Shown piece by piece: positions 1 through 50,351 of a stretch of DNA of 64,000 nucleotides (position 1 is its first letter; every line of letters starts with the position of its first letter). The position numbers and the translations under genes were made by a program. The notes under the pieces were generated by a model. It worked only from the letters and a program-made list of their open reading frames with translations. It ran no database searches and was not told where the DNA came from. Where the stretch lies: assembly GCA_037968475.1 (NCBI GenBank), contig JBBKVO010000018.1, positions 108,603 through 172,602 of the forward strand, written 5' to 3'. This DNA is from Bacteroidia bacterium. GTDB lineage: Bacteria; Bacteroidota; Bacteroidia; UBA8524.

Positions 1-2057
1 TTATAGGCTACTTGCACATCTAATTTGGCTAAATGATTGAACCTATATTTTAAAGTGTTAGAATTAGTATCTGAACTGCTTTTGTGATACGTAAGCGGGT
101 TCTTATTTATATCGTAGCCGTATACATTATCAGGGTCTAAGCTTTTAGGGTTCATATAAGTATACCCTCCAATAATATTCACTTCGGTTTTCCCCATTTT
201 TCCCTCACCGCCAATACTAATATCAATGCCGTTTACCCTTGCCTTACCCACATTTACCGAGCTAAAGCCCAAACCTAATAAATTCTCGAAACCTAAGTTT
301 GGCCCCCATTGCCCAAAATTAAATTCCATCATACGATTATATTCCGTCCAAAAGCCTGCAATATCAACAAACCCCATCCATTTACCTATTTTAAAACCTT
401 GTTTTACGGCTATTTCGGCATTCCACCCTGTTTCTGATTTTAGATTTGCATTGGGATATACTTGCAATGGCCCCGCCGATGTGCGCACATAACTTTCAAC
501 TATACTAGGAAAACGGTATCCTTGCCCATACGATGCACGTAAAAAAGTAGCTTTTGCAGCCTCGTAGTTTATGCCTGCCCTAAATACGGGTTTCGACTCA
601 AAATAATCATCCAACCTAAAATTCTCGTAGCGTGCGCCAACATTAGCCGTTAGTTTTTTCCACTTTTTTTCTAATTGAAGAAAGGGAGCCAAATTGGCAT
701 TTTGATGTATTCCCTGAAACAATGGCGAGTTGGATAGGGTATAATTGGCCGCCACGCCGCCTACCAAACTCAACCCTATTTTCTCAAAATTGTGCTGCAC
801 TTGATACTCTACATAATAATAATCTGAGCTATTAGATTGGTCGTTGGCTGTATCGCCGTTATCAACATTATTATCTAAATAAAAAAACCTACCGCGCAGG
901 CTATGGCGGGTTTCCCCCGTATAAAAAATAGCGTAAGGGTCAATATTAAAACGGATGCTATTGGTAAAATTAAACCCTGAATCGAGCTGTGTATAGCCTA
1001 AAGCATAACTGTGCCACAAAAGAAATGAGCCTGTATAGCTGCTCATAAAATTACCGTTAATGCCATACACCAAGTTTTTTACTTTTTTGGGAGTATAACG
1101 GGTATTGAAGCTAAAACGTCCGCGTTTTTCGGGGTCGCCCATTCTATAACCGTCATCGTTTAAATAGTTTACTGAAAATGTACCATCAAACCTTCCCCAC
1201 CGTTGCGAGTGGACTATGTTTGCCCCATTTTTAAACAGGGTGCGACCGCCTTGCCATTTAAGACCTTCACTACGCGGGTTATCGTAAACACCTGTAAATA
1301 AATTTGCGGCGGTATAGGGTTTGTCTTTTGGGCGAATTGTACGAATATTTATTACTCCGTTTAATGCTGCCGAACCATACAGCACTGATGAAGCACCTTT
1401 TATTACTTCTACTTGGTCTATATTTTCAACGGGTATTAAACTCCATTGTGCTTGTGCCGCATCACCCGATACCATAGGCATATCATCCAACAACACTAAA
1501 ACACGAGTACCAGCGCCATAACTCCATCCGCTACCGCCACGTATACTGGCTTGCCCATCAATAAAACTAACACTGGGTATTTGGTCAATACCTTCATCAA
1601 TATTTACATTATTACGGTCTTGAAAAAGGTAGGGTTTTACCATCTCCATTGATACAGTAACGTTTTTTAGCTTTTGCTCCCCCTTGCCAGCCGTTACCAC
1701 CACTTGATCGAAATATACCGAGCCGTCCTTCATTTTCACATCCAACAGTAACTCGTTATTTTGTATTTCAACCGCATTTTTTATTGGGTCGTATACATAT
1801 TCAAATGTTATATAGCCAATATACACAAAGCTAACAGTAGTTTTTTGCTTGCTATTTAACTCAAGTGAATAATTTCCGTTTATATCAGTACTAACGCCTT
1901 TTGCTTGGTCAACGTGTACAGTAACACCATACAAAGCCTCGCTAGTAGTGGCATCAGTAACTTTTCCTTTTAGGGTAAAGGTTTGTGCATACATCGAAAA
2001 GGTAGCTACAACCGTCCATAGCACTACACATACATATTGTTTTAACGAAACCGACAT
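1..2057 (-). CDS. TonB-dependent receptor, N-terminal part (gene runs off the window start). Signal peptide, CarboxypepD_reg-like domain, plug and barrel.
   Basis: The minus-strand translation from ATG (complement of 2055-2057) reads MSVSLKQYVCVVLWTVVATFSMYAQTFTLKGKVTDATTSEALYGVTVHVDQ..., then plug-like motifs (VVVTAGKGEQKLKNV..., IDQVEVIKGASSVLYGSAALNGVINI). The reading frame stays open to position 1. It is not in the ORF track because it is truncated by the window edge. Confidence 0.8.
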   Translation of the reverse strand, partial: MSVSLKQYVCVVLWTVVATFSMYAQTFTLKGKVTDATTSEALYGVTVHVDQAKGVSTDINGNYSLELNSKQKTTVSFVYIGYITFEYVYDPIKNAVEIQNNELLLDVKMKDGSVYFDQVVVTAGKGEQKLKNVTVSMEMVKPYLFQDRNNVNIDEGIDQIPSVSFIDGQASIRGGSGWSYGAGTRVLVLLDDMPMVSGDAAQAQWSLIPVENIDQVEVIKGASSVLYGSAALNGVINIRTIRPKDKPYTAANLFTGVYDNPRSEGLKWQGGRTLFKNGANIVHSQRWGRFDGTFSVNYLNDDGYRMGDPEKRGRFSFNTRYTPKKVKNLVYGINGNFMSSYTGSFLLWHSYALGYTQLDSGFNFTNSIRFNIDPYAIFYTGETRHSLRGRFFYLDNNVDNGDTANDQSNSSDYYYVEYQVQHNFEKIGLSLVGGVAANYTLSNSPLFQGIHQNANLAPFLQLEKKWKKLTANVGARYENFRLDDYFESKPVFRAGINYEAAKATFLRASYGQGYRFPSIVESYVRTSAGPLQVYPNANLKSETGWNAEIAVKQGFKIGKWMGFVDIAGFWTEYNRMMEFNFGQWGPNLGFENLLGLGFSSVNVGKARVNGIDISIGGEGKMGKTEVNIIGGYTYMNPKSLDPDNVYGYDINKNPLTYHKSSSDTNSNTLKYRFNHLAKLDVQVAY

Positions 2058-2107
2058 ACTACTTTTGAATCTGGCAATAATACAAGTTTAGTTAACCGCC
2101 GCCTATT

Positions 2108-2857
2108 ATGAAAAAAATTTACGCTGCTATTTTATTTACAGCCATTGCTTTTGGCTTAAATGCCCAATGTACACCCGATAATTCACTAAATCAACCGGGT
2201 TATTATCCTGAACAGTTAGATACTGCACAAATAGCCCAAGCCTATAATATGGTGCTACAATTGCGCATACCTGCCGACACTACAGTTACTTTTTTAGGGC
2301 AAACCATTGTTGCTGATATCGACTCTATAAAATTGGTTTCTGTAAACGGAATGCCTTCAGGGTTTACATACGTATGTAATGTGTCTAATTGTATGTTTGA
2401 ACCTACGCAAACCTATTGCGCTGTGATTAGTGGTAATGCTACAGCCCAACAACAAGGTGTGTACCCTTTAAAATTGGCTATTTTGGCTTATGCGCATGGC
2501 GTAATTTTTGGGTCTACTACTAATTTCCCTCCTCAACCTGATACAATAAAACGTTTTAGTTTGGTTGTTGGACAAGGCACGGTAGGCATACAAACTGTTG
2601 AGGCGAATAAAACTTTTAAAATATTCCCTAACCCTACCAATGACATATTACGTATTTGGATTAACGGGCAAGCGGGCGAAACTGTAACCTATACCATTAG
2701 CGATATTACAGGTAAAGTATACCGCCAAGAAACTGTTGCTCTTGAAAACGGTGAAGTGCTAATAGGCACTACCACTAAAGGATTAGCAAAAGGCATATAC
2801 ATTGTACAACTAAACACCCAAAACGGCATATATGCCGAAAGGTTGATGGTTGAGTAA
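2108..2857 (+). CDS. Secreted protein with a T9SS type-A C-terminal sorting domain
   Basis: N-terminal signal peptide (MKKIYAAILFTAIAFGLNAQ). The C-terminal ~80 aa (KIFPNPTNDILRIWINGQ...KGIYIVQLNTQNGIYAERLMVE) match the Por-secretion-tail pattern. Confidence 0.7.
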   Translation: MKKIYAAILFTAIAFGLNAQCTPDNSLNQPGYYPEQLDTAQIAQAYNMVLQLRIPADTTVTFLGQTIVADIDSIKLVSVNGMPSGFTYVCNVSNCMFEPTQTYCAVISGNATAQQQGVYPLKLAILAYAHGVIFGSTTNFPPQPDTIKRFSLVVGQGTVGIQTVEANKTFKIFPNPTNDILRIWINGQAGETVTYTISDITGKVYRQETVALENGEVLIGTTTKGLAKGIYIVQLNTQNGIYAERLMVE

Positions 2858-2878
2858 CTCTTATACATAATTTAAAAG

Positions 2879-2920
2879 AATAGCCCCAAAAGACTTTGTC
2901 TTTTGGGGCTATTCTTTTTT
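2879..2920 (+). terminator. Rho-independent terminator
   Basis: Hairpin TAGCCCCAAAAGA...TCTTTTGGGGCTA followed by a T-run, directly after the 2857 stop. Confidence 0.6.
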
Positions 2921-3168
2921 GGGCTCTCTGTCATTCTCATTTAAAATGAGAATCTGATTGTAGGGTATTTTTTTGGGTTAGCTCCCCACAGATTCCTTCT
3001 TTCGAGGGAATGACTTGATAAGTAATGGGGTTGAAAAACCATTCTATAAAAAAAATTACAGCCTGAAAGAGGACTTAAGTCCCCTTTCGCTTTGTAATAG
3101 TAACAGCAATGGGTTTTAATCTGTCGCAAATACAGAGACAATTAACTCATTTACCTCCAAACTGACGC

Positions 3169-4200
3169 TTAAATTGTATTGTACCAAGCCAGTGCTTCTT
3201 TAATTTCTTGCGGGGTACAATAATTATCAATAGTTGCGCTGCCAATTTCTTCTAACAAAGTAAAATTAATGCCTTGCACGGTATTTTTCTTATCGGCACC
3301 CATTAGCTTTATTAATTCATCCCAATTAGCATCATCAAGTTTTGGTAGGGTGTACAGGTTTTGTATACACTTAACTATGGCTTGCAATTCGCCTTCATCC
3401 AGTCCATTTTTTTGTGATAGATAGCTTTCGCACAATATACCCAAGGCTACGGCTTCGCCATGCAATAGTGATGCTTCGCTGTTTTCTAAAAACCACGACT
3501 CAACTGCATGGCCTATGGTATGCCCAAAGTTTAACAGTTTGCGCAAACCGTTTTCGTGTAGATCTTCTTCAACAATTTCGTTTTTTATAGCTACAGATGT
3601 AGTTATTTGATTTTTGAACCTACGAGGGTTAAACTCTTGCAACTCCACCCAATGGTCAGCATCGTATATCAACGCGTGTTTTAGCATTTCGGCATAACCT
3701 GCTTTGGTTTCCCTATCGGGTAAGGTTTTTAAAAACGGCGGATGAATAAAAACACCCAAAGGTTCTTTAAACAAACCGATATAATTTTTTAGCCCTTTAT
3801 AATCAACCCCCAGTTTGCCACCTATGGCGGCATCAACCATTGCTAAAAGACTTGTAGGTACATTAATAAAATAGATCCCGCGTTGAAAAACAGCAGCACT
3901 AAAACCACCCATATCGCCTACCACGCCGCCACCTACATTTATTAGCAGCGATTTACGGTTGGCACCCCTTTCTATCAGTATATCAAAAACACTTTCGCAC
4001 GTGCTTAGGCTTTTGTGTTCTTCGCCTGCATCAATGGTAATGGCTTCAAAATCAAAACCTTGTAGCAAGGGTACACAATGCTGCGCTGTGTTTTCATCAG
4101 ACAAAACAAATATGCCTTCAAAATCGCGCGAGTTGACAAAGTTGGCCAAATACTCTAAAGCATTATCGCTTATTACTATATGTTCGTTTATTAGCTGCAT
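3169..4200 (-). CDS. aroB: 3-dehydroquinate synthase
   Basis: Full-length 343 aa with the GGGVVGDMGGF and NVPTSLLAMVDAAIGGKLGV motifs characteristic of DHQ synthase. Confidence 0.9.
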   Translation of the reverse strand: MQLINEHIVISDNALEYLANFVNSRDFEGIFVLSDENTAQHCVPLLQGFDFEAITIDAGEEHKSLSTCESVFDILIERGANRKSLLINVGGGVVGDMGGFSAAVFQRGIYFINVPTSLLAMVDAAIGGKLGVDYKGLKNYIGLFKEPLGVFIHPPFLKTLPDRETKAGYAEMLKHALIYDADHWVELQEFNPRRFKNQITTSVAIKNEIVEEDLHENGLRKLLNFGHTIGHAVESWFLENSEASLLHGEAVALGILCESYLSQKNGLDEGELQAIVKCIQNLYTLPKLDDANWDELIKLMGADKKNTVQGINFTLLEEIGSATIDNYCTPQEIKEALAWYNTI

Positions 4201-4306
4201 ATTTTTTATTGATTGATTTGTTGATTGATTTGTTGATTTTGAGATTAACTGATTTTAAATCTATTAATTTTTTGTCATAGTTCGAGAACCTCACTATAAC
4301 AAAAAA

Positions 4307-5317
4307 TTAATACCCCCTTTTCACAACTCCCCAACCTATGCGTGCACCTGTATATTGGTCGGTAGGGGCATTGTTTAGTAATTCTTCAATATGAATATCA
4401 ATTTCAGGGGTTAGTTGCACTTCTATTGCTTTACAATTGGCATCCACTTGTTCAGGACGTGATGCGCCAATAATAAGCGATGTAACAGGAGGTTTGTTTA
4501 GTGCCCAAGCCAATGCCAATGCAGCTTGTGTGCAATTTAAGCCATCAGCAATTTTTTTAAGCTCATTTTGCATATCAAAAAACTCATCTGTCATTCGTTT
4601 GCGGGGGAAATATGCTCCTAAATCCTCGCTGCTCATGCGCGAATCATCGGGCACATTATCGCGTGTGTATTTACCTGTTAGTAAACCTTGCGCCAATGGC
4701 GAGTAGCACACCAAACCCAAACCATCTTTGTGGCATACATCCATCACATCTACTTCAAGGCTACGGTTTAGCATATTGTATACGGGTTGGTTGCTTATAG
4801 GTTTGCGCCATCCGTTTTTTTCGCAAATGCGTAAAGCATCAACTATTTGCACGGCACTCCATTGGCTCACTCCCCAATGTAGTATATAGCCACGATCTAC
4901 CAAGTTGTGCATGGCATAGCAGGTTTCTTCTAGCGGGGTGTCAATATCGTAGCGGTGGCATTGGTATAAATCGATGTAATCGGTACGCAGGCGCAACAAA
5001 CTAGCCTCGCAGGCGGTGCGTATATGGCGCATAGATAACCCTTGTGCCATCCAATGATTACTCATTGGGCCAAAAACTTTGGTAGCCACCACAAACTCGC
5101 TACGGACTTTCCCGTGCAGCCATTCGCCAAGTACTTTTTCGCTTTCGCCCATATAATACATATCGGCAGTGTCATAAAAGTTAATACCGTTTTCTAAGGC
5201 TTTATCTAAGGTGGCTATCATATTTTGCCTATTTCCTTTTAGCTGAAAATTCAGCCACATCCCCATCCCTATTTCTGATATATAAATGCCTGTATTGCCC
5301 AGTTGCCTGTATTTCAT
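4307..5317 (-). CDS. Aldo/keto reductase family oxidoreductase (Tas/Kv-beta-like)
   Basis: 336 aa with the typical AKR N-terminus (MKYRQLGNTGIYISEIGMG) and an AKR fold pattern throughout. Confidence 0.85.
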   Translation of the reverse strand: MKYRQLGNTGIYISEIGMGMWLNFQLKGNRQNMIATLDKALENGINFYDTADMYYMGESEKVLGEWLHGKVRSEFVVATKVFGPMSNHWMAQGLSMRHIRTACEASLLRLRTDYIDLYQCHRYDIDTPLEETCYAMHNLVDRGYILHWGVSQWSAVQIVDALRICEKNGWRKPISNQPVYNMLNRSLEVDVMDVCHKDGLGLVCYSPLAQGLLTGKYTRDNVPDDSRMSSEDLGAYFPRKRMTDEFFDMQNELKKIADGLNCTQAALALAWALNKPPVTSLIIGASRPEQVDANCKAIEVQLTPEIDIHIEELLNNAPTDQYTGARIGWGVVKRGY

Positions 5318-5576: not shown

Positions 5577-6077
5577 CTACTCTTGCCTTGTCCAAACAAT
5601 CTCACCGCTTAGGCATTCTTCTTTTTTTAGTGAGGTCTCTATTTGAGTACGTAAGCTTTCCGTTGATTTTACGGCTTCAGTACCTCCATCAAGCAAACCA
5701 ACATCGTAGGTATACATTTTTCCATTATTGTACTCGTAGCAATACAAATAGTAGCTATTATCGTCTTTTGGAAGAGAGTATATAAACGTTTTGCCACTAA
5801 TTTTAGTTACCCACCCTATAAATTCATTGGTTTCAAGGCTATACATTGTGCCCGTATTTTCTACTTTAATAGAATAGCTATTGGCAGAAGCTTTTGTTAT
5901 AGTTACTTTACCAAATTCAGGGTCTTCCTCGTTGTTCGTCCATGTACCCAAAAGGTTAGGGTCGATTTTTTCAGTGCCCGTGTTTCCGGCAGGGTAGTCT
6001 AAACCAATTGGGCAACCGCTAAGTAATACCATTACCGGCAGCAGCATTATTATTACAAATTTTGTAGTTTTCATCAT
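5577..6077 (-). CDS. Hypothetical lipoprotein
   Basis: Signal peptide with a lipobox-like LLSGC motif. No recognisable domain. Confidence 0.5.
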   Translation of the reverse strand: MMKTTKFVIIMLLPVMVLLSGCPIGLDYPAGNTGTEKIDPNLLGTWTNNEEDPEFGKVTITKASANSYSIKVENTGTMYSLETNEFIGWVTKISGKTFIYSLPKDDNSYYLYCYEYNNGKMYTYDVGLLDGGTEAVKSTESLRTQIETSLKKEECLSGEIVWTRQE

Positions 6078-6160
6078 TTAGGTTAATACACCAAATATCA
6101 TCATAAGTAAATTATTTTTTCTACGATTTTTTTTAACCCGCTCGCACCTATTTTTGCACC

Positions 6161-6865
6161 ATGCAAAAACGCACTAAAATACCTGTATGGATAAAAACAG
6201 TTTGGGGCTATACAAAACCAATTGCTGTTTTATTGATGCAACTGTTTTTGCTGTTTACCATTGTGTTTAGGGTAGTGCCTATCCCTTTATCACCATTGAT
6301 GGTATTGCGCCCTTCGCCCATAAAAAAAGATTGGGTGGCGTATGAAAAAATTAATAAAAATGTGCTGGTAGCAGCTCTGACTGCCGAAGACCCACACTTT
6401 GCCACCCATTGGGGGTTTGAGTTTGAGGCAATGGTAGATGCTGTTGAGGATAATATTGAAGGAAAAAAGAAACACCTACGCGGTGGTAGTACTATTAGCC
6501 AGCAAACAGCAAAAAATGTATTTCTTTTTCCGGGTAATGGTATTACACGTTATATACGCAAGGGGTTTGAGTTTCCGCTAACGGCTTGGCTTGAACTAAT
6601 GTGGAACAAACGCCGCATATTGGAGGTATACTTAAATATTATTGAAATGGGCGATGGTATTTATGGTATTGAGGCCGCTGCACAGCATTATTATAAAACC
6701 ACAGCAGCAAAACTAACGGCGCAGCAAGCTGCTTCAATTGTGGTTTGTTTTCCTAATCCTTTGAAAAGAAATCCATTGAAGCTAACGCCCCGTTTGCAAA
6801 AAAGGCGAAACAAATATGTGCGCTGGATGGCAGGCTATAAGTTGCCCGCCAACCTGCAACCCTAA
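6161..6865 (+). CDS. mtgA: Monofunctional biosynthetic peptidoglycan transglycosylase (GT51)
   Basis: 234 aa with an N-terminal TM helix and GT51 motifs ([26 protein letters not shown]). Confidence 0.85.
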
Positions 6866-7731
6866 AACATTTGCTCCATTATTTTTATAAGGTAGCGGCC
6901 ATAGCCACTTTTCATAAGCGGATGGGCTAGTTTTTCAAGCTGCTCTTTATTAATAAAGCCCATACGGTAAGCTATTTCTTCAGGGCAACCGATTTTTAGG
7001 CCTTGCCTTTCTTCAATCACCTGTACAAATGTGCCTGCTTGTATTAGCGAGTCTATAGTACCTGTATCTAACCATGCCGTTCCCCTGTTCATCAGGGCTA
7101 CTTTTAGGCGATTGCGTTGCAGGTATATTTTATTAATATCGGTTATTTCCAACTCGCCGCGTGGCGATGGTTTTAGGCTGCGGGCATAGGCCACCACATC
7201 GTTATCGTAGTAGTAAAGGCCGGGTACTGCATAGTTTGATTTTGGTTTTTCGGGTTTCTCTTCAATGCTTAGCACGTTCATATCCTCGTCAAAATCAACC
7301 ACACCGTAACGCTCAGGGTCGTTTACGTGGTAGGCGAAAACTATACCGCCTTCAGGGTCGTTACAGGCCTGCAAAGTGCGCGAAAAGCCCGAACCATAAA
7401 ATATATTATCACCCAAAATAAGGGCTACTTTTTCTTTACCGATAAAATCAGCACCTATGGTAAATGCTTGCGCAAGTCCTTTTGGTTCTGGTTGTTCAGC
7501 ATAGCTAAACTCGCAGCCAAACTGCTTACCATCGCCCAAAAGTTGACGAAAAAGGGGTAAATCGTGCGGGGTAGATATAATAAGTATTTCGCGTATGCCC
7601 GATAGCATTAGGGTGCTGAGGGGATAGTATATCATGGGTTTATCGTACACAGGCATTAGCTGTTTGCTAACGGCAATTGTAAGTGGATGCAAGCGTGTAC
7701 CCGAACCTCCTGCTAATATTATACCTTTCAT
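6862..7731 (-). CDS. rfbA: Glucose-1-phosphate thymidylyltransferase
   Basis: [19 protein letters not shown]-terminus, 289 aa. Canonical RmlA. Confidence 0.9.
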
Positions 7732-22234: not shown

Positions 22235-23824
22235 ATGAACCAAGTAATTGAGAAAGTTTTGGGAAAAGCAGGTAAGGTATACAACAACCTTAGTCCTGCT
22301 GAACTTGTAGAAGCCGCTTTAAAAAGGGGTGAAGGTGTTTTAGCCGATAGCGGAGCTCTTGCCGCAGATACCGGAGAGTTTACAGGTCGTTCGCCAAAAG
22401 ACAAATTCTGTGTGAAGGATGCCAAAACTGAAAATACAGTATGGTGGGGTGATGTGAACCAACCGTTTGACGGGGATAAATTTGAAAAACTACTTAATAA
22501 AGTTATAGCCCATCTTGAAGGAAAAGAAATTTTTGCTCGTGATGCTTATGCTTGTGCCGACCCTAACTACCGCCTTACTGTTAAGGTGTTTACAGAAACT
22601 GCATACAACAACTTATTTTGCCACAACCTTTTCTTACGTCCAACTGCCGAAGAGTTGAAAAACTTTGATAGCGAATGGGTGATAATAAATGCTCCTAGTT
22701 TCCATGCCGATCCTGCTGTTGATGGCACACGTCAACACAATTTCTCTATGTTAGACTTTACCCGCAAAATTATTTTGATTGGCGGTAGCGGCTATACTGG
22801 TGAGATGAAGAAAGGTATTTTTACAGTTCTTAACTACATTTTGCCCGAAGAGAAAAACGTGCTTTCTATGCACTGCTCGGCAAATATTGGTAATGAAACT
22901 GATGATACTGCTATTTTCTTTGGATTGAGCGGTACTGGTAAAACTACTTTGAGTGCCGACCCTAATCGCCGTTTGATTGGTGATGATGAGCACGGCTGGA
23001 GCGGTAATACCGTATTTAACTTTGAAGGTGGTTGCTATGCTAAATGTATAGACCTTACCAAAGAAAAAGAGCCTCAAATTTTTGATGCCATCAAATTCGG
23101 TACTTTGCTTGAAAACATCCGTTTTAATGACGGTACACGTACACCAGATTATACCAATACATCGGTAACTGAAAATACGCGTGCAGCATACCCAATCTAC
23201 TCAGTAGATAATATTGCTACTCCTTCTATCGGCTCTACTCCAAAAAATATATTTTTCCTTACGGCTGATGCCTTTGGTGTATTGCCTCCAATATCAAAAC
23301 TAACGCCTGAACAAGCTATGTACCACTTCATATCTGGATATACTGCAAAGGTTGCAGGTACTGAAGCAGGTGTTACTGAGCCACAAGCTACATTTTCAGC
23401 TTGTTTTGGTAAAGCATTTTTACCATTACACCCGGGCAAATACGCTAAACTTTTGGGAGAAAAACTAAAAGAAAGCGGTGCTAATGTATGGTTGGTAAAC
23501 ACAGGATGGAGCGGTGGCCCTTACGGTGTTGGTAACCGTATGAAACTTAGCTTTACCCGTGCAATGATAACCGCTGCACTTAAAGGCGAACTAAGCAATG
23601 TGGGCTATACTACACACAAAGTGTTTGGTTTAGCTATGCCAAACAGTTGCCCTGCTGTACCAACTGAAATTTTGCACCCACGTACTACTTGGGCAGATTC
23701 AAATGCCTACGACCAAAAAGCAAACCAATTGGCCGAATTGTTTATTAAAAACTTTAGCCAATATGCTGATGGAGTTACAGAAGATATACTTTCTGCTGCC
23801 CCAAAAGCGCATGCTACTGCATAA
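22235..23824 (+). CDS. pckA: Phosphoenolpyruvate carboxykinase (ATP)
   Basis: GLSGTGKTTLS P-loop and collinear throughout. A TAcTTTTG (-7-like) element lies at 22187-22194 upstream. Confidence 0.95.
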   Translation: MNQVIEKVLGKAGKVYNNLSPAELVEAALKRGEGVLADSGALAADTGEFTGRSPKDKFCVKDAKTENTVWWGDVNQPFDGDKFEKLLNKVIAHLEGKEIFARDAYACADPNYRLTVKVFTETAYNNLFCHNLFLRPTAEELKNFDSEWVIINAPSFHADPAVDGTRQHNFSMLDFTRKIILIGGSGYTGEMKKGIFTVLNYILPEEKNVLSMHCSANIGNETDDTAIFFGLSGTGKTTLSADPNRRLIGDDEHGWSGNTVFNFEGGCYAKCIDLTKEKEPQIFDAIKFGTLLENIRFNDGTRTPDYTNTSVTENTRAAYPIYSVDNIATPSIGSTPKNIFFLTADAFGVLPPISKLTPEQAMYHFISGYTAKVAGTEAGVTEPQATFSACFGKAFLPLHPGKYAKLLGEKLKESGANVWLVNTGWSGGPYGVGNRMKLSFTRAMITAALKGELSNVGYTTHKVFGLAMPNSCPAVPTEILHPRTTWADSNAYDQKANQLAELFIKNFSQYADGVTEDILSAAPKAHATA

Positions 23825-23857
23825 ACAGAAAAAACGATAACAGAGTTTTTATACTAA

Positions 23858-23892
23858 AAAATCCCGACCCGAAAGGTTGGGATTTTTTGTTT
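23858..23892 (+). terminator. Rho-independent terminator
   Basis: AAATCCCGACCCGAAAGGTTGGGATTT followed by a T-run. Confidence 0.6.
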
Positions 23893-23897: not shown

Positions 23898-23946
23898 TAT
23901 TTCAATGATTTGTCAAATTTTAAAAATTTGACAAATCATTGAAATA
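23898..23946. repeat. Perfect ~23-bp-stem palindrome
   Basis: TATTTCAATGATTTGTCAAATTT-TA-AAATTTGACAAATCATTGAAATA. Confidence 0.7.
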
Positions 23947-23983
23947 TCGCCCTAATCCCTCTCCCTCTTTCTTGCTTATTAGT

Positions 23984-24042
23984 GTCGTGAAGTTTTGAAT
24001 TTGACAAACTTTTAAAGTTTGTCAAATTCAAAACTTTACGAC
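23984..24042. repeat. Near-perfect ~28-bp-stem palindrome
   Basis: GTCGTGAAGTTTTGAATTTGACAAACTT-TTAA-AAGTTTGTCAAATTCAAAACTTTACGAC has one mismatch. It abuts the sulfatase stop codon. Confidence 0.7.
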
Positions 24043-25367
24043 TATTGCCTTATTCTAGCTATTTCAACCTCTAAAGCCAGTTTAGCCGCTATTTGCTCTG
24101 CACTTAGGGTGCTTTGCAGCAAATTAGTGTTTTCGTAAGAGTCGGTGCTAAGGTCGTATAGCTCTTTAGTGCCCGTGCTATATTCAATCAGTTTGTATTT
24201 TGTATTGCGCACCGTCCAATAATCTTTTCCGTTACCTTTAAGTTCATCGTACACAAACTCTCTAAAATTGGTTTGGGTTTGGATAAACAAAGGGCGTATG
24301 CTTTTGCTATCATTAATTTGTGTACTCCCCGCCCCTGCAACATCAGCAATAGTGGCAAATAAATCAGTACTGTTTATTAAAGCTGCTTCTCGCTCACCTT
24401 TTCTGCTCACACCACTGCCACTAACTATCATAGGCACTGCTACACCACCCTGATATATAGTACTCTTGGCTTTTAGTTTACTGTATGGCGTTTGTATTAC
24501 CTCTCGGGTAGTGCCGTTATCTCCAATAAAAATAATAAGGGTATTGTTGCGCTCCGCTTCACTCATCGATGCCAACAACCTGCCTATTTCAGTATCCATT
24601 GCTTCCATCATAGCAAAAAAGTAAGGCTGTGGGTTAGCACTTATCGAGGTACTATCAGCAGGCAAATTATCCCTATCGTGTAAGTCAACAGGAGGTAAGT
24701 GAAAAGGAGTATGTGGCGCGGTATAAGCCAACCACAAAAACCAAGGTTGTTTTTGCGCACCTATCCAATCAATTGCCAAATTCGTAAATTTTGTAGTAGC
24801 ATAGTCGGTACAATTTTGCTGTGCCCCATTAATAGTAAGCTGCCAATTGCTATAATCTTGCATAGCTCCTATTAAAAAACCTGCATAGTAGCCTACCCCC
24901 ATATTGGCGGGATTATTTTTACCTCCATTACTTGCCCCTCCCAAATGCCATTTTCCTATAACAGCATGACTATATGCTGCATTGGTTTTATCGTCTAAAT
25001 ATTTCTGAATAGAGGTTTCGCTAAGTGGTATTTCATTATTTTCTGATACGCTGAGAACGCCTGTGTGGTAGCCGTACCTGCCTGTAAGTATTGATGCTCG
25101 TGTGGGTGAACACTCAGGGTATGCCCATACATTATCAAAGGTGATTCCGTTTTGCATTAAACTTTGCAATACAGGTAAATTGGGTTTTGAAGCTCCTACA
25201 CTGTAATTGGGAGTGGCATCCAGCCCCATATCATCAGCTATTATTAGTAATATATTAGGTTGTGATACAGCGGGAAGAGTAATACTGCCATCACTATTTT
25301 TTTTACAAGCCGCAAGAGTTATTAATACACCAAATGCCACTGTACATATTCTCCACTGTATCTTCAT
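24042..25367 (-). CDS. Sulfatase (Cys-type, formylglycine-dependent)
   Basis: Lipoprotein signal peptide, LIIADDMGLD, and the active-site CSPTRAS motif. Confidence 0.85.
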   Translation of the reverse strand: MKIQWRICTVAFGVLITLAACKKNSDGSITLPAVSQPNILLIIADDMGLDATPNYSVGASKPNLPVLQSLMQNGITFDNVWAYPECSPTRASILTGRYGYHTGVLSVSENNEIPLSETSIQKYLDDKTNAAYSHAVIGKWHLGGASNGGKNNPANMGVGYYAGFLIGAMQDYSNWQLTINGAQQNCTDYATTKFTNLAIDWIGAQKQPWFLWLAYTAPHTPFHLPPVDLHDRDNLPADSTSISANPQPYFFAMMEAMDTEIGRLLASMSEAERNNTLIIFIGDNGTTREVIQTPYSKLKAKSTIYQGGVAVPMIVSGSGVSRKGEREAALINSTDLFATIADVAGAGSTQINDSKSIRPLFIQTQTNFREFVYDELKGNGKDYWTVRNTKYKLIEYSTGTKELYDLSTDSYENTNLLQSTLSAEQIAAKLALEVEIARIRQ

Positions 25368-27084: not shown

Positions 27085-27139
27085 TTAATTTATCCGTTGT
27101 GGTAGTACCATAACGGATAAATTATTATTTTACAAAAAG

Positions 27140-44629: not shown

Positions 44630-46390
44630 ATGAAAAAACTACTACTAACAGCAGTTGTGCTGGTTGCAGGTATTGCAGCGCATGCACAGTATTTCCAAAA
44701 TCTTTACGGCGTTCCCGTAAATGAAACTCTAACATCAGGTATCAATACTACAGCTTCGGGAAACGGCTATTTTATGGCTAGTTCTAACAGCGGCTTTGCT
44801 TTTGGTACTCCTTCAATTTCAGCTGCATTTGCAGACGTTACAGGTAATATACCCGGTGGCCCTTACTTTACTAACGAGTACATGGTAGTAAGCAATGCAG
44901 GTAATCCATTACAAACCCAAGACCCACAGGTATTTGAGTTTGACAACGGTTCTGGCTTTGGTATTATAGGCAGGTATACCGACCCTACAATGGCTAGCCC
45001 AAACACTGGAATTTATTTTCTTCAATTAGACCCTTCGGGAAATGTACTAAATTCTTTTAACTATACTGTTAACCCTAATGGCAGTAGCTTTTGGGATGTT
45101 ATAAAAGTGAGTGCTATTGCCGAATCGGCCACTGGTAAAGAAATATACGTTACAGGCTGGTTACAACCCAATTTTGCACAAGTAAACAGCTTTGTATTAA
45201 AAATTGACGCTGCCTCTGGAGCAATAATTTGGGGTTATGTATACGATGTTATCAACCCTAGCTTCTCGTCAAAAGATTTGTTTAACGACATTGTAGAAAG
45301 CCCTTATTCTAGTGAAGTTATTGTTGTGGGTCAAACTTATGATGGCACTACAACTTCTGATGGCTTGTTTATGCGTATTAATTCAAATACAGGAGCTGCT
45401 TTTCCTATCGTAAACCTTCACGGAACAGCAACCTCATGGGATGCTTTTAATGCTATAACCGTAGCTAACAGCCCTGCCGCTGGTGGCCCTGGTTTTGCAA
45501 TTGGTGGTACAAGCGATGCTAACGGTACTAATGATTTTTGGTTTACTTTAGTTGATCCTACAGGTACTTTTATCACTTCAACCCTACACGATTATAGTAT
45601 AAACCCAGGCGCCAACGATATTTGCGAAGATATAATTGAGCGCAAAAACACATTTGGCAAATATGAATACTACATGGCTGGCAGCACCTTTAAAGGAGCA
45701 TTTGGCAAGTACGATGTATTAGTAATAAAAACTGATGCTAAGGGTAATGGTGTTGCCAATGGAGAATTTACTTATGGTAGCGCAGGTAACGATTTTGGTA
45801 AAAGCATTGACCAATATAACGGTACAGGTAATGATGGCCTAAGCATATTTGGCACTTATGATGATAATGTTATAGGCGGTTCTGATATGTACTTGGTAAG
45901 AGCTTATTTTAATGGCGCATCAGGTTGTAACGAAAAATTTAGCACACCAACCCCAAAAAGTGGCCCTAAACTATACTTACGCTATGATGTAAAAGATATA
46001 GCCAAGTTTAAAGACAACAAATTCTTATGGAAACAAACTACTGCCAAAGACAAAAATCTTTGCTTTGCTTGGACAATAACAGGTGGCAGTAACGCCCGTG
46101 TAGCTCCAGCCGAACCTAGCGGAGATAAAGAAGCAAAAGTCAGCCCTAACCCAATTGCACAAGGCACACAATATGCCGCCCTTGAAGTTGAAGTAGAAAA
46201 CCCGACCACAGCACAAGTGGCTATTTATGATATGCTTGGCCGTACCTACTATGCTCAAACCTTTACATTAGTAAAAGGTAAAAACAACATAGTGCTTGAT
46301 ATTAACAACGTTAATATGGCACAAGGTATGTATACTGTTAAAGTACAAGGTGAAAACCTAAACCAAAACATTATATGGTTAGTAAAATAG
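44630..46390 (+). CDS. T9SS type-A C-terminal-domain secreted protein, paralog 1 of 4
   Basis: Signal peptide ending ...AHAQYFQNLYG. Conserved C-terminal block GGSNARVAPAEP.GDKEAKVSPNPIAQG... plus a sorting-domain tail. Confidence 0.7.
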   Translation: MKKLLLTAVVLVAGIAAHAQYFQNLYGVPVNETLTSGINTTASGNGYFMASSNSGFAFGTPSISAAFADVTGNIPGGPYFTNEYMVVSNAGNPLQTQDPQVFEFDNGSGFGIIGRYTDPTMASPNTGIYFLQLDPSGNVLNSFNYTVNPNGSSFWDVIKVSAIAESATGKEIYVTGWLQPNFAQVNSFVLKIDAASGAIIWGYVYDVINPSFSSKDLFNDIVESPYSSEVIVVGQTYDGTTTSDGLFMRINSNTGAAFPIVNLHGTATSWDAFNAITVANSPAAGGPGFAIGGTSDANGTNDFWFTLVDPTGTFITSTLHDYSINPGANDICEDIIERKNTFGKYEYYMAGSTFKGAFGKYDVLVIKTDAKGNGVANGEFTYGSAGNDFGKSIDQYNGTGNDGLSIFGTYDDNVIGGSDMYLVRAYFNGASGCNEKFSTPTPKSGPKLYLRYDVKDIAKFKDNKFLWKQTTAKDKNLCFAWTITGGSNARVAPAEPSGDKEAKVSPNPIAQGTQYAALEVEVENPTTAQVAIYDMLGRTYYAQTFTLVKGKNNIVLDINNVNMAQGMYTVKVQGENLNQNIIWLVK

Positions 46391-46416
46391 TTTAGATAAA
46401 ACACTAAATTAATTTA

Positions 46417-46447
46417 AAGCTACCCCTTTTGGGGTAGCTTTTTTTTT
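46417..46447 (+). terminator. Rho-independent terminator (module copy 1)
   Basis: AAAGCTACCCC-TTTT-GGGGTAGCTTT followed by a T-run. Confidence 0.7.
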
Positions 46448-46466
46448 GTAAAACCAAAAAGGGTAG

Positions 46467-46517
46467 TTCACAAAGTCAAAAGGGTAGTTCACAAATTCAA
46501 AATGGTATTTCACAAAG
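46467..46517 (+). promoter_or_regulatory. Three TTCACAAA(G/T) direct repeats phased at 21 bp
   Basis: Repeats start at 46467, 46488 and 46508/9. They are upstream of the conserved CAAATTGTATACACA promoter-proximal block. Confidence 0.5.
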
Positions 46518-46582
46518 TGAACATGTTTTAACAAATAGTATTTGTGCAAATTGTATACACAAATTTTAAAACACTATCTATT

Positions 46583-48340
46583 ATGAAAAACATTATTCTA
46601 ATTGTCTTTTTACTAGCCGGTTTCACTAGCAAGGCTCAGTATTTCCAACATCTTTACGGTCAAGACCCCGCTATTGGCAGCTTAATAGGAAATGGCATGA
46701 ACACCAAAGCAACAGGGCCCGGACATTTAATAGGGGGTTTACATATAAAAGATTTATTAATACCCCCCGGTCCGTATGATTTTTACAACTTTGCTCTGCA
46801 TGTTATTAGAACCGATGCTGACGGCAGGTTTGCTTCTCCAAACGATTTTAATAATACTTATAGGCTAACTAACTCAGCTGGTGCTGCTATCCGTTTCTCA
46901 GCAGGTTCTGTTGTCGAGTTTAGTGATGGCAGTGGCTATGGTGCTATAGGTACTTATTTTTACGAGCCTCTGCCTCGCTCGTTTGGTATTGCCTACATCC
47001 GCTTAGATGTACTCGGTAATGTAATTAGTTCACAAGGCTACGCTTTACCTTATAGGGGCGGTAGCTATATTGATTTGAGGGGAATGAAAGAATCAGTATC
47101 AAACCCCGGCGATCTATTTGCTACAGGCACATCTGCAAATTCAAATGGTGATGAGTATATGTGGGCACTTAAAATTGACCAAACCGGCACTCTTTTATGG
47201 GGGAATTTATATGATTTTGGATTAGGTATTATTGAAGATCCAGCTGATTTAATTGAAAGCCCTTATGCCTCAGAACTTATTGTTGTAGGAGGGGTGAAAT
47301 CATCGTTAAGAGCCTTATGGATGGTTTTAGACCCTAACACAGGCAGTGTGATTTCAGCCGATGAGATGTCGTCTTTTTACGGTACAACTGAGATTTTAAA
47401 CTCCATTGATGTAAGTGATGACCCTTTAATGCCCGGTTTTATACTTTCAGGTGTAGTGGATGAAAAGGTATGGGTAGTAAAAACCGACCAAATGGGCACT
47501 TACCAATGGGGAGGAATATATCAACCCTCATTTAGTCAAGTAGAATATATGTATGGTTTTGATGCCGTTGGTCGCCTAAAAGAAGATGGCTCTGATGGCT
47601 ATAATTATGAATACTTTATTACTGGAGCGATATATGTTACATCTGCACCAAACCCTGATGCTTTTGTTTTTAAACTAGACCGTTGGGGCAACCCCGTCAA
47701 CCCAAATGCATTATTTATTTATAACTATGGTATTGAAGAAACAGGATTGGATGTAGATGTAAATATAAGTGGCAGTGGCGATGGTGTTACTATGTATGGT
47801 ATTGGTGAAGATAACAATATCCCTACCAAAGAAATATATGTTGTTAAGGCCTATTTTAATGGTGTTTCTGGTTGCAATGAGCGGTTTGAAGATTTACAAC
47901 AAAATGTAGGAGAACTTTTTCCTGTTAATTCGTTAGGCGTTGCATTAACTCCACTAAGCACAGAAATTCTTACATTATACAATATCGAGAATGAATTAGA
48001 TAAAGAGATTTGCTATAACACTACAATACCCAGTGGTAGCAATGCACGCGTAGCTCCTGCTGAACCTAAAGGTGATAAAGAAGCAAAAATTAGCCCTAAC
48101 CCTATTGCACAAGGCGTTCAATATGCTAATATAGACGTTGATATTGAACAACCTACAACTGCACAAGTATCGGTTTACGATATGCTAGGCCGTACCTACT
48201 ACTCGCAAACATTTACTTTGGTAAAAGGCAAAAACAACCTAGTGCTTGATATTAGTAATATTAACATGGCACAAGGTATGTATACTGTGAAAATACAAGG
48301 TGATAACCTAAACCAAAATATAGCATTACTTGTAAAATAA
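46583..48340 (+). CDS. T9SS type-A C-terminal-domain secreted protein, paralog 2 (start chosen at MKNIILIVF)
   Basis: The ORF-track start at 46544 lies inside the conserved promoter block. A signal peptide begins at 46583. The C-terminal ~100 aa are ~90% identical to the other paralogs. Confidence 0.7.
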   Translation: MKNIILIVFLLAGFTSKAQYFQHLYGQDPAIGSLIGNGMNTKATGPGHLIGGLHIKDLLIPPGPYDFYNFALHVIRTDADGRFASPNDFNNTYRLTNSAGAAIRFSAGSVVEFSDGSGYGAIGTYFYEPLPRSFGIAYIRLDVLGNVISSQGYALPYRGGSYIDLRGMKESVSNPGDLFATGTSANSNGDEYMWALKIDQTGTLLWGNLYDFGLGIIEDPADLIESPYASELIVVGGVKSSLRALWMVLDPNTGSVISADEMSSFYGTTEILNSIDVSDDPLMPGFILSGVVDEKVWVVKTDQMGTYQWGGIYQPSFSQVEYMYGFDAVGRLKEDGSDGYNYEYFITGAIYVTSAPNPDAFVFKLDRWGNPVNPNALFIYNYGIEETGLDVDVNISGSGDGVTMYGIGEDNNIPTKEIYVVKAYFNGVSGCNERFEDLQQNVGELFPVNSLGVALTPLSTEILTLYNIENELDKEICYNTTIPSGSNARVAPAEPKGDKEAKISPNPIAQGVQYANIDVDIEQPTTAQVSVYDMLGRTYYSQTFTLVKGKNNLVLDISNINMAQGMYTVKIQGDNLNQNIALLVK

Positions 48341-48372
48341 AATAGTATTTATAATCATCATATCTGTTTTAT

Positions 48373-48406
48373 AAAAGCTACCTCAAAAGGGTAGCTTTTT
48401 TTTCAC
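48373..48406 (+). terminator. Rho-independent terminator (module copy 2)
   Basis: AAAGCTACC-TCAAAA-GGGTAGCTTT followed by a T-run. Confidence 0.7.
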
Positions 48407-48473
48407 AAACCCAAAATAGTGTTTCACAAAACAGAAACTGCATTTCACAAAGTCAAATGCCCATTTCACAAAG
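48401..48473 (+). promoter_or_regulatory. Four TTTCACAAA(C/A/G) direct repeats at exactly 21-bp spacing
   Basis: Repeats start at 48401, 48422, 48443 and 48464. Confidence 0.55.
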
Positions 48474-48537
48474 TAATCACACTGTTGCAGTTAATATTCT
48501 ACAAATTGTATGTACTAATATTAAAATACTATCTACA

Positions 48538-50292: not shown

Positions 50293-50324
50293 TATTTGTG
50301 CTGATAAATATTCATCACTTTATA

Positions 50325-50350
50325 AAAGCTACCTCAAAAGGGTAGCTTTT
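50325..50350 (+). terminator. Rho-independent terminator (module copy 3)
   Basis: AAAAGCTACC-TCAAAA-GGGTAGCTTTT. Confidence 0.65.
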
Positions 50351-50351
50351 A

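Follow-up and report, generated by a model that had tools for sequence, protein, structure and literature searches.

Two long palindromes between convergent pckA and sulfatase genes of a Bacteroidia bacterium are probable REP-type repeats with a RAYT-like partner elsewhere

REPs are repetitive palindromes that form hairpins in single-stranded DNA and that carry a conserved 5' tetranucleotide, GTAG or CGTC, as a tag (PMC3733652). In the structure 4ER8, E. coli TnpA_REP is seen in complex with a REP hairpin. Among described REP/RAYT systems, the closest to the locus reported here is the one that Quentin et al. 2018 (PMC6006769) classify as TnpA_REP subclass 2.4 and Bertels et al. 2017 as RAYT group 4. 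It is characterized by flanking REPs, by REPs placed in-frame within tnpA_REP, and by a patchy distribution among phyla (PMC6006769). Other short repeats include the Rickettsia palindromic elements (RPEs), which are specific to Rickettsia and measure ~100-150 bp, and MITEs, which consist of terminal inverted repeats with target-site duplications (PMC10969869). Bacteroidetes, Chloroflexi, and Flavobacteria go unmentioned in that 2024 review of prokaryotic MITEs (PMC10969869). A literature string search for the repeat core described below returned unrelated primers only, and this particular 33-bp repeat family was not found described.

The repeats in question, P1 and P2, lie in the gap between two convergent genes of a Bacteroidia bacterium (Table 1), within a stretch of 64 kb that was analyzed as a whole and is hereafter called the window. 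An earlier note on this DNA had reported two unusually long palindromes between pckA and a sulfatase gene, and we recovered both genes and both palindromes exactly where it had placed them. P1 is composed of 24-nt arms around one central base, 100% complementary, and P2 of 29-nt arms, again around one central base, with a lone mismatch that is a G·T on the + strand, as the G-U pair of that description implied. The stems of 23 and 28 bp given there are correct for RNA, with 3-nt loops, and the spacing of ~40 bp corresponds to a gap of 37 nt. What the two palindromes share is a 29-nt core, ATTTGWCAAA-N9-TTTGWCAAAT, to which cross-pairing between P1 and P2 is confined; the earlier claim of a common core was right as to the sharing, and its extent goes beyond the 9-nt TTTGACAAA then recognized. 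Each core arm is in itself an 11-bp palindrome, and the two lie 18 bp apart. The P1 core (23908-23936) reads ATTTGTCAAATTTTAAAAATTTGACAAAT and is enclosed by a 10-bp outer stem, TATTTCAATG/CATTGAAATA. The P2 core (23999-24027) reads ATTTGACAAACTTTTAAAGTTTGTCAAAT and sits within a 15-bp outer stem whose 3' arm reaches into the sulfatase stop codon; P2 ends on the first base of that codon (CTA, 24042-24044, minus strand) and so directly adjoins the sulfatase gene.

Table 1. Features of the pckA-sulfatase gap and its flanking genes, in window coordinates.
Feature	Position	Strand	Evidence and remarks
pckA (ATP-dependent PEP carboxykinase), convergent upstream gene	22235..23824	+	Pfam PEPCK_ATP, E 5.9e-225
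Intrinsic terminator, conventional, bidirectional in form: AAAAAATCCCGACC-CGAAA-GGTTGGGATTTTTT	23856..23888	.	Terminator calling; kept in all relatives
P1, perfect 49-bp palindrome	23898..23946	.	REP-family core + lineage-specific outer stem; orthologues L084, L124, L127; absent L119, L126
Spacer, 37 nt, deletion scar	23947..23983	.	Alignments with L084
P2, 59-bp palindrome, one G·T	23984..24042	.	REP-family core + outer stem; orthologues L084, L124, L126; absent L119, L127
Sulfatase gene, convergent downstream gene	24042..25367	-	Pfam Sulfatase, E 5.3e-44, + SGSH_C

P1 and P2 are the longest two short-loop inverted repeats of the 64 kb, and the window has two matches to the shared core pattern where 0.06 are expected, which is far beyond chance. 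The folding-energy check that had been proposed gave -86.6 kcal/mol for the 221-nt intergenic region versus -31.5 +/- 3.6 for shuffles (z = -15.5; opposite strand, z = -12.8). Elsewhere in the window, searches for further core copies (up to 3 mismatches, variable spacing, degenerate half-sites) found none, and single matches to ATTTGACAAA at 26153 and 56456 were attributed to chance. The window also contains a palindrome with 19-bp arms 3' of mscS (27086-27124). As previously proposed, a conventional terminator precedes the palindromes. It consists of an A-tract, a 14-bp stem with one mismatch, and a T-tract, is maintained by all relatives with changes in stem and loop, and encloses the sole terminator called in the gap (23868-23881). 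Neither P1 nor P2 has a U-tract or T-run beside it on either strand, and with the canonical terminator present they are not needed for termination, as had been argued. By E-value, Rfam returned only sub-threshold matches to generic hairpins (miRNA model) at the locus, and no match in the whole window reached the gathering score.

Comparison with related genomes (PckA 96-98% identical), another of the proposed checks, revealed all four combinations of the two palindromes: both present (window, L084, L124), P1 only (L127), P2 only (L126), and neither (L119). At loci of the L084, L124, and L127 type, 1.4 kb lies between P1 and P2. In the nearest relatives, this interval of ~1.4 kb holds two genes, ORF210, which encodes 210 aa and is a genuine conserved gene, and DUF559, and it is missing from the window genome. 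As read from the alignments, P1 and P2 stand side by side here because the ~1.4 kb between them has been deleted. The spacer still contains the stop codon (CTA, 23952-23954) and ~17 nt of the 3' end of the lost ORF210, together with TTGCTTATTAG (23972-23982), a fragment of a ~150-nt repeat that flanks the DUF559 gene in relatives. Across relatives the content between the two positions varies among ORF210+DUF559, ORF104+DUF559, AbiGi+ORF209, and nothing; among the ORFs of this islet, PADLOC matched only AbiGi, in L121. P1 is found only in loci with the ORF210 3' end, and may have come with that gene by inheritance instead of by an insertion of its own. Neither a clean empty site nor a precise insertion of 33 bp came to light: in relatives without P1, ORF104 replaces ORF210, and in those without P2 there is an alternative segment of ~85 nt. 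The module around the missing palindrome differs too, so that no insertion boundaries emerged. At the P1 position of L120 there is a long palindrome of unrelated sequence.

Where the palindromes are present, their stems have changed in a compensatory manner. In P1, G·C became C·G and A·T became G·C among the orthologues in L084, L124, and L127. In P2, T·A was replaced by C·G, L084 (whose left arm is imperfect) showing T·G as the intermediate, and G·C contrasts with A·T between L124 and L126. In this Bacteroidia lineage, copies retain the 29-nt core and carry copy-specific outer stems of 7-15 bp, yielding palindromes of 43-59 bp that come within 0-15 nt of a stop codon. For P1 of the relatives the distance to the ORF210 stop is 5-15 nt, and a palindrome in a related genome (L004) overlaps a stop codon as P2 does.

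The core pattern was found in at least 114 stretches among 185,579 species genomes scanned, in Bacteroidota, Chloroflexota, and a few other groups. At least 18 loci carry it in Ca. Leptovillus affinis, at least 9 in Bacteroidales EPI_MAG_00099, and at least 7 each in Saprospiraceae UBA2329 and Bacteroidota P01_D01_bin.42; in the lineage of the window copy number is low, with 2 copies at a single locus of the 64 kb and at least 3-4 in a related 3.8-Mb chromosome (at least 3 exact-pattern matches). The L084 core of P1 is matched at 29/29 positions by cores of unrelated genomes, L081 (a Saprospiraceae MAG) and L057 (a Bacteroidota MAG). The consensus of the family is a 33-bp unit, AG-ATTTGWCAAATYTT-n-AARATTTGWCAAAT-CT, with arms of 15-16 nt and a loop of 1-3 nt. 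Isolates with this canonical form include Aquirufa aurantiipilula 15D-MOB. W1 and W2 were complementary in 109 of 116 copies, though the search pattern did not demand so, and the three free inner pairs were complementary in ~90%, with covarying C·G (52) versus T·A (51). Arms are conserved across the family and the central 3-5 nt are variable. At the flanks, G..C occurs in 79 copies and A..T in 78; in 58 of 90 copies the palindrome runs on for exactly 2 bp past the core, and the AG..CT foot is present in 70-80% of copies, with WKAG (TTAG, ATAG, or TGAG) on one side in ~64 of 97. Half-sites alone were rare (~10 in 913 kb) and fell mainly within degenerate full copies. A subset of the pattern matches (Puia, Mucilaginibacter) resembles a TetR operator; it has a different centre and lies outside the 33-bp family.

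Copies are chiefly intergenic, in convergent (~16), divergent (~14), and tandem (~40) gene contexts. Some are in-frame within genes, namely HsdM (two sites), HsdR, DnaE, KdpB, and a C39-ABC exporter, where each adds a short peptide to a loop region of the protein (DLTNLQDLSNL or RFDKSSRFVKS); the unit is 11 codons long (33 bp) and can be read through in two of its three frames. KdpB does not show a clean insertion of 11 aa: at that position its close homologues carry a loop of different sequence and almost equal length, which makes it a replaced loop. At the flanks of copies we detected no direct repeats or target-site duplication, and no body enclosed by terminal inverted repeats, so that the suggestion of a MITE remnant finds no support in the strict sense. 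A phage or plasmid origin was likewise rejected, with three core matches in IMG/VR and no meaningful one in PLSDB. All-against-all clustering of 731 neighbouring ORFs produced generic families only (histidine kinases, ABC and MFS transporters, SDRs), and the lone informative small cluster was a RAYT-like gene.

This gene is a HUH/Tyr ORF of 210-230 aa that is bracketed by the TTTGWCAAA element at four independent loci (L080, L091, L102, L136). Its homologues, at 27-81% identity, have the same architecture, with 33-bp palindromes of co-varying sequence beside and inside the gene (L128-L134, L137, L139, L143, L150, L156, L158, L160, L162). A homologue search (E <= 1e-5) retrieved 2,703 proteins, several of which, among the best 120, are named RayT or putative transposase by JGI. 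The HUH motif LLPNHFHFAI (NHFH) and YIHxNPQKHG were invariant in 28 homologues. The best PDB match by sequence was the REP-associated tyrosine transposase 4ER8, and an AlphaFold model (pLDDT 87.9) had the same entry as its top fold match (E 3.7e-7, TM 0.65), followed by the IS200/IS605 transposases of ISDra2, IS200, and IS608. The NCBIfam model REP_Tyr_transpos (NF047646) was matched over positions 9-146 of 146 with E 4e-14, at a score of 52.7 bits that is below the curated cut-off of 80, and no Pfam family, Y1_Tnp included, was matched even at E <= 10. Surveys based on profiles would therefore have missed this protein. The link between repeat and gene was seen only in Chloroflexota and in unassigned metagenome contigs, and in no Bacteroidota genome with the exact core; neither a RAYT homologue nor a HUH/Y1 signature was found by tblastn and motif scan in the window or in the relatives' fragments.

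We consider it probable that P1 and P2 both belong to a REP-type repeat family whose RAYT-like transposase partner resides elsewhere. Judged by its sequence, their core belongs to the multi-copy 33-bp family, and at loci elsewhere the family is associated with the RAYT-like gene; we infer that a RAYT placed P1 and P2 here. In Chloroflexota and metagenome loci, the element brackets, and also interrupts in-frame, a single RAYT-like HUH/tyrosine (Y1) gene. By analogy with IS200/IS605 and E. coli TnpA_REP, the enzyme would bind the hairpin on single-stranded DNA, then cut and rejoin beside it, dispersing copies without target duplication; those that survive would lie mainly between genes or in-frame in protein loops. 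The copies of this Bacteroidia lineage would be derived, with the core kept and the AG/CT foot swapped for outer stems, and their arm pairing may be maintained by selection on the hairpin or by hairpin-templated (template-switch) correction, both of which fit the data. P1 and P2 are most likely neither terminators nor operators but relics of mobile DNA, presumably immobile by now, and may at present act as 3' UTR hairpins of the sulfatase mRNA.

A role in RNA could also be the main explanation. Under such a scenario P2, and then P1, would be 3' UTR structures of the sulfatase mRNA, and formerly also of the ORF210 mRNA, that block 3' exonucleases, back up termination, or stall the terminating ribosome at the stop codon; selection would retain the hairpins, and a REP origin would be incidental or absent. 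The positions of P2, of P1 in relatives, and of the L004 palindrome at or near stop codons agree with this, as do the high predicted stability of the stems, the pairing preserved by compensatory changes, and the fact that sulfatase transcripts traverse P2 and P1 ahead of the only U-tract terminator. In E. coli, REPs stabilize upstream mRNA, and REPs within ~15 nt of a stop codon lower translation. However, both strands of P1 and P2 are devoid of a U-tract, close relatives with the same flanking genes are without P1, P2, or both, and family copies have no preference for gene 3' ends, divergent contexts being about as frequent as convergent ones. Moreover, both wobbles (P2 of the window and the P2 intermediate of L084) are G·T on the + strand and become A·C on the sulfatase mRNA, and a generic need for a hairpin does not explain base-for-base conservation of a 29-nt core among phyla. 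We regard functional RNA hairpins as an unlikely account of the locus.

Conserved arms around a variable centre might instead be expected of sites recognized in duplex DNA, whether by a dimeric protein on each ATTTGWCAAAT or, given the self-palindromic arms and their spacing, as the 11-7-11 core site of a tyrosine recombinase at the edge of a variable islet, like pdif/attC. The interval between P1 and P2 is indeed a hot spot whose gene content differs among relatives, yet there are islet variants with neither palindrome (L119) or with one (L126, L127). Two independent dimer sites would need no pairing between W1 and W2, lone half-sites are rare and mostly degenerate full copies, and no regulator, recombinase, or other family recurs beside the copies; what recurs instead is an HUH enzyme, which acts on single-stranded hairpins. 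The protein-binding operators once proposed for this locus are also at odds with neighbours that are unrelated genes in every orientation and with a position downstream of both genes. A duplex site is thus highly improbable. The remaining alternative, that the palindromes grew in AT-rich intergenic DNA by template switching and are kin to no repeat family, draws on the ~38% GC of the window, on the unrelated palindrome of L120 and the one after mscS, and on outer stems that are copy-specific, with a left arm of P2 that looks remodelled toward complementarity with the conserved right arm. Template switching may account for such stems but not for the core, which fits the pattern of the family, is in some copies identical to the P1 core of a relative, and occurs in the window well above its expected frequency. 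For the core this explanation is contradicted, and it survives only as a mechanism of stem extension; as an account of the whole locus its probability is close to negligible.

If P1 and P2 are REP-type repeats and not regulatory sites, they should be annotated as repeats. The 33-bp palindrome also leads to a divergent RAYT-like clade without a Pfam match, and a repeat common to Chloroflexota and Bacteroidota nearly base for base may be a marker of horizontal exchange between phyla, one that is tolerated in-frame in dnaE, kdpB, and hsdM/R. With a hairpin of 33 nt and an enzyme of 210 aa, it would be a tractable pair for studying how RAYTs recognize and move REPs. For the question whether palindromes are kept perfect through hairpin selection or template-switch correction, the long-stem derivatives form a natural series. 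More speculatively, and with the odds rather against it, the REP core of this Bacteroidia lineage may have been turned into long, foot-less, nearly fully self-complementary hairpins at stop codons, held in pairing by recurrent compensatory changes and unlike known REPs, either domesticated as 3'-end control elements or self-extending, each hairpin serving as template for copying its flank. Independently of this, the partner may form a RAYT clade unseen by Pfam-based surveys, with a 33-bp repeat that crosses phyla and enters essential genes.

As in REP/RAYT systems, the family comprises short hairpin-forming repeats that are mostly extragenic, multi-copy in several genomes outside the window lineage, and flank and co-vary with a single HUH/Tyr gene. 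Unlike REPs, it has no GTAG/CGTC tag; its foot, AG..CT, takes the form WKAG at one side in roughly two thirds of the copies, and P1 (..AATG/CATT..) and P2 (..TTGA/TCAA..) are without that foot. The near-perfect 33-bp palindrome with arms that are palindromic themselves is a further departure, and the RAYT-like protein has FE in place of W[EQ] and YIHxNP in place of YIxNNP when compared with published RAYT subclasses. The family unit falls within the REP length of ~20-40 nt, whereas P1 and P2 (49 and 59 bp) are much longer than the 33-bp unit and have no RAYT in view. Two REP-type hairpins 37 nt apart in a convergent gap are reminiscent of a REPIN/BIME. Of the REP/BIME-like character suggested as one possibility for the locus earlier, the REP-like part holds, the core being a multi-copy family that flanks a RAYT-like gene; the BIME pair does not, since P1 and P2 are present independently and 1.4 kb apart in the nearest relatives, and their adjacency is a deletion scar rather than a mobile doublet.

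With RPEs and in-frame MITEs the family has in common the in-frame position in unrelated housekeeping genes and the short added peptide, and it differs from them in its 33-bp unit, the lack of duplication, and an HUH-type partner enzyme. Similarly, the subterminal hairpins of IS200/IS605 insertion sequences and of their derivatives without genes are recognized by a Y1 HUH enzyme on single-stranded DNA without target duplication, but here no left and right ends enclose a body, the hairpin is single and symmetric, and the partner is nearer to TnpA_REP than to TnpA_IS200 in both fold and sequence. Intrinsic terminators, like P1 and P2, are stable hairpins shortly downstream of genes in convergent gaps; the AT-rich stems of P1 and P2, two to three times the usual length, the missing U-tract, and the sequence conserved across phyla set them apart. 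This kind of element is a known one, REP/RAYT, and closest to TnpA_REP subclass 2.4, with which the family shares a repeat that lies between the HUH and Tyr motifs in the frame of the transposase gene, further in-frame copies in unrelated genes, a patchy distribution across phyla, and an NHFH motif that fits NH[IFV]H.

Three inverted repeats, a conventional terminator and two long palindromes (P1 and P2), occupy the gap between the convergent pckA and sulfatase genes of the window. The two long palindromes reported in the earlier note were confirmed in coordinates and arms, and also by RNA folding, a check that it had proposed: the 221-nt stretch folds at -86.6 kcal/mol versus -31.5 +/- 3.6 for shuffles (z = -15.5), and its opposite strand likewise falls far below them (z = -12.8). 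P1 and P2 are the longest short-loop inverted repeats across the 64 kb, lie 37 nt apart, and the sulfatase stop codon starts on the final base of P2. What they have in common is not the 9-nt core first described but a 29-nt one, ATTTGWCAAA-N9-TTTGWCAAAT, which occurs twice in the window versus 0.06 expected with three mismatches permitted. Rfam searches of the locus and window yielded only sub-threshold matches to generic hairpins.

Other structured gaps were also observed in the window. A further convergent gap holds a palindrome, TAATTTATCCGTTGTGGTA-G-TACCATAACGGATAAATTA, starting 2 nt past the mscS stop codon, where relative L084 has a different, GC-richer hairpin. In a cluster of tandem paralogues, two gaps share an identical terminator hairpin (AAAAGCTACCTCAAAAGGGTAGCTTTT); after it, close to the start of the next gene, come 3-4 TTTCACAAA boxes spaced exactly 21 bp apart. 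The first gap has two boxes. These look like a phased activator or operator array.

Coordinates of the features, counted within each stretch (L numbers are other DNA stretches retrieved for comparison)
Stretch	Feature	Position	Strand	Description
Window	pckA	22235-23824	+	Pfam PEPCK_ATP
Window	Conventional terminator	23856-23888		A-tract, 14-bp stem with one mismatch, T-tract
Window	P1	23898-23946		24-nt arms, 1 central base, perfect pairing
Window	29-nt core in P1	23908-23936
Window	P2	23984-24042		29-nt arms, 1 central base, single G·T on + strand
Window	29-nt core in P2	23999-24027
Window	Sulfatase gene	24042-25367	-
Window	Palindrome after mscS	27086-27124		19-bp arms, one mismatch
Window	Tandem paralogous genes	44630-52234		Four genes (586, 598, 611, 588 aa)
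Window	Two boxes, first gap	46508/46527
Window	Gaps with identical hairpin	48340-48457, 50292-50468
Window	Box arrays	48401-48472, 50352-50402
L120	Unrelated palindrome	4514-4558		Perfect, 22-bp arms
L084	DUF559 gene between repeats	5720-7110
L121	AbiGi in islet	5678-6469		PADLOC E 6.8e-50
L119	Unannotated ORF in islet	4440-4754		104 aa
L123	ORF210 homologue in islet	5723-6169		Truncated
L102	HsdR	1565-4849		In-frame 33-bp repeat
L080	Palindrome in RAYT-like gene	2930-3010		In-frame
L080	Tandem REP array	4307-4822		~153-bp period, four units and an overlapping extra copy

An exact scan for the 29-nt pattern across 185,579 genomes (one per species) retrieved at least 114 stretches. Several copies occur in many of these genomes: at least 18 loci in Ca. 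Leptovillus affinis (Chloroflexota), at least 9 in one Bacteroidales MAG, at least 7 copies each in Saprospiraceae UBA2329 and one Bacteroidota MAG, and 2-4 among the matches listed in several Ardenticatenaceae, Anaerolineae, Saprospiraceae and Aquirufa genomes. Viral contigs gave only three matches and plasmids no meaningful one, and a full-text literature search for the core string found nothing. Features outside the search pattern were counted in 116 distinct copies. The W positions are mutually complementary in 109 of these and the three free inner pairs in ~90%, covarying between C·G (52) and T·A (51) around a variable centre of 3-5 nt. Because the flanks are conserved (G..C in 79 copies, A..T in 78) and in 58 of 90 family-like copies the palindrome ends exactly 2 bp past the core, the family unit is a 33-bp palindrome, AG-ATTTGWCAAATYTT-n-AARATTTGWCAAAT-CT. 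Isolated half-sites are rare, which makes the hairpin, rather than the 11-mer, the unit. W class, centre and flank take a form particular to each genome, which is the pattern of within-genome amplification. In Ca. Leptovillus affinis (L007, L016, L042, L045, L069, L087, L089, L092, L115 and others) the repetitive extragenic palindrome (REP) forms part of a composite repeat of ~150 bp that has AGACCCCAAGGGTTTG / CAAACCCTTGGGGTCT as its terminal inverted repeats. A conserved stretch beside the hairpin contains a mini-ORF (MSGLTHHHE) equipped with a ribosome-binding site, and unrelated genes follow more than 10 of the copies.

In three genomes, family copies adjoin members of one small ORF cluster. 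Pfam gives no match for this cluster, which aligns over the full NCBIfam profile REP_Tyr_transpos at E 4e-14, with a score of 52.7 bits that falls short of the 80-bit cut-off. These REP-associated tyrosine transposase (RAYT)-like proteins carry the motifs LLPNHFHFAI (HUH) and YIHxNPQKHG (catalytic Tyr). Their only PDB sequence match is 4ER8 (E. coli TnpA_REP), described there as "REP-associated tyrosine transposase bound to a REP hairpin", which is also the top Foldseek match (E 3.7e-7, TM 0.65) of the AlphaFold model (pLDDT 87.9), followed by the ISDra2, IS200 and IS608 transposases. The gene has one REP copy just upstream and two downstream in L080; in L091 a slightly diverged upstream copy (AGAATTGAC...GTCAATTCT) is a compensatory variant and an exact copy overlaps the 3' end; L102 and L136 are similarly bracketed. 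Among 2,703 homologues (E <= 1e-5), several of the best 120 are named RayT or putative transposase by JGI, and metagenome homologues (27-81% identity) have 33-bp palindromes that share this build while their sequences co-vary (AGATTGGTCCAATCT, AGATTGGTTCAATCT, AGACCTGTCAGGTTT, AGCGATAGCATCACT), placed beside the gene and often in-frame inside it. The element and its bracketed gene form the REP-RAYT arrangement, and the core of P1 and P2 is homologous to this REP family; the REP-like reading was the right one of the four in the earlier note, which had also listed operators, a MITE remnant and an mRNA-stabilising structure. On the model of IS200/IS605 and E. coli TnpA_REP, the encoded transposase would recognise the hairpin on single-stranded DNA and would cut and join beside it. 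Close homologues (L080, L128, L129, L132, L136, L162) all have an in-frame REP-like palindrome at one shared position (~aa 77-110, between the HUH and Tyr motifs; pLDDT 62, low confidence), which in L080 is a hybrid, AGATTTGTCTATTCT-CAA-AGAATAGACAAATCT, retaining only the outer half of the arm. A tandem REP array lies ~1 kb from the L080 gene.

Family copies behave like inserted DNA. Their nearest-ORF contexts (~16 convergent, ~14 divergent, ~40 tandem) roughly fit random intergenic placement, and clustering of 731 neighbouring ORFs revealed no recurrent partner beyond generic families. About one-eighth of copies lie inside a long ORF, several being real genes that read straight through the element: the 33 bp equal 11 codons, with two of three frames open on both strands (DLTNLQDLSNL or RFDKSSRFVKS). 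In-frame repeats occur at two sites of HsdM in four Chloroflexota genomes (L022, L091, L102, L103), read in two different frames as DLTNLQDLSNL and RIDKSSRFVNS, and in HsdR, DnaE (L076), KdpB (L073) and a C39-ABC exporter (L100). The closest KdpB homologues have an unrelated loop of near-equal length at the repeat site, so a simple +11 aa insertion is not demonstrated there. Readings of the palindromes as operators or recombination sites found no support in the neighbour analysis, half-site statistics or islet variants. Matches in Puia and Mucilaginibacter (L020, L065, L096, L099) have a different centre, ATTTGACAAAAT-n5-ATTTTGTCAAAT. A conserved ORF of ~205 aa (TetR_N in L065) lies 11-37 nt away, and an MFS transporter gene is close by; these matches appear to be an ordinary operator of the TetR type that has no relation to the REP family.

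Among related contigs, found through PckA homologues, the ancestral order is pckA>, <ORF210, <sulfatase, ORF210 being a conserved secreted protein (68% identity, L084 vs L121). The gap is a variable islet whose content depends on the genome: ORF210 and DUF559 (L084, L124, L127), ORF104 and DUF559 (L119, L126), AbiGi and ORF209 (L121), or nothing (window). The 37-nt window spacer comprises the ORF210 stop codon with ~17 nt, plus 11 nt of a ~150-nt repeat that flanks DUF559, and is a deletion scar. P1 and P2 are adjacent solely because ~1.4 kb was lost between them, which disposes of a paired BIME/REPIN element. In the comparison with related genomes that the earlier note had proposed, the two vary independently among relatives with 96-98% identical PckA: both are present in the window, L124 and L084 (left arm of P2 imperfect), only P1 in L127, only P2 in L126 and neither in L119; the more distant L121 and L123 (88%) also have neither. 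At the P1 position, L120 (93%) has an unrelated palindrome, TATTTTACACCCTCTCTCCCTC-A-CAGGGAGAGAGGGTGTAAAATA, made from the GGGAGAG hairpin that the DUF559-flanking repeat carries, with the same TATTT/AAATA at its two ends as P1. The small DUF559 (Vsr-like endonuclease) gene and its two direct repeats (hairpins CTCTCCCTTATGGGGAGAG and CCCCCTATTAAGGGGG, string GCTTATTAGCCTTCGGCAT), present in L084, L119, L124, L126 and L127, look like a small mobile cassette.

Stem changes between relatives are compensatory in P1 (G·C to C·G, A·T to G·C) and in P2, where T·A becomes C·G, with T·G in L084 as the intermediate, and where L124 and L126 differ by G·C versus A·T. Of the two P2 arms, the right one, on the sulfatase-stop side, is conserved; the left arm in the window has several changes, all raising pairing. 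Either selection on the hairpin or hairpin-templated correction may have kept this pairing. The other two exact copies among the matches listed for a related chromosome (L004, overlapping a stop codon, and L027) have the same core within copy-specific 7-bp outer stems. Copies in the window lineage are derived forms: the AG/CT foot is missing, the outer stems are long and particular to each copy, copy number is low, and no RAYT is in view (homology and motif searches found none in the 64 kb or the relatives' fragments). P1 and P2 are probably relics that are no longer mobile. They may secondarily act as hairpins in the sulfatase 3' UTR, since P2 begins at the sulfatase stop codon and the sole U-tract terminator on that strand is past P1, but relatives without either palindrome argue against an essential role of this kind.

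REP/RAYT is an already known kind of element. In TnpA_REP subclass 2.4, REPs flank the transposase gene, sit in-frame within it between the HUH and Tyr motifs and also occur in unrelated genes, and the subclass is patchily distributed over phyla, Bacteroidetes among them (PMC6006769); these are exactly the traits of the RAYT-like clade and 33-bp repeat found here. We did not find the symmetric 33-bp unit with its Pfam-invisible clade described in the searchable literature; the clade is invisible to the Pfam profile used in the published survey (PMC6006769). Unlike published TnpA_REP it has FE instead of the W[EQ] motif, and its REPs lack the GTAG or CGTC tag of published REPs, with a WKAG foot on one side in ~2/3 of copies. 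The long-stem derivatives are an unusual variant.
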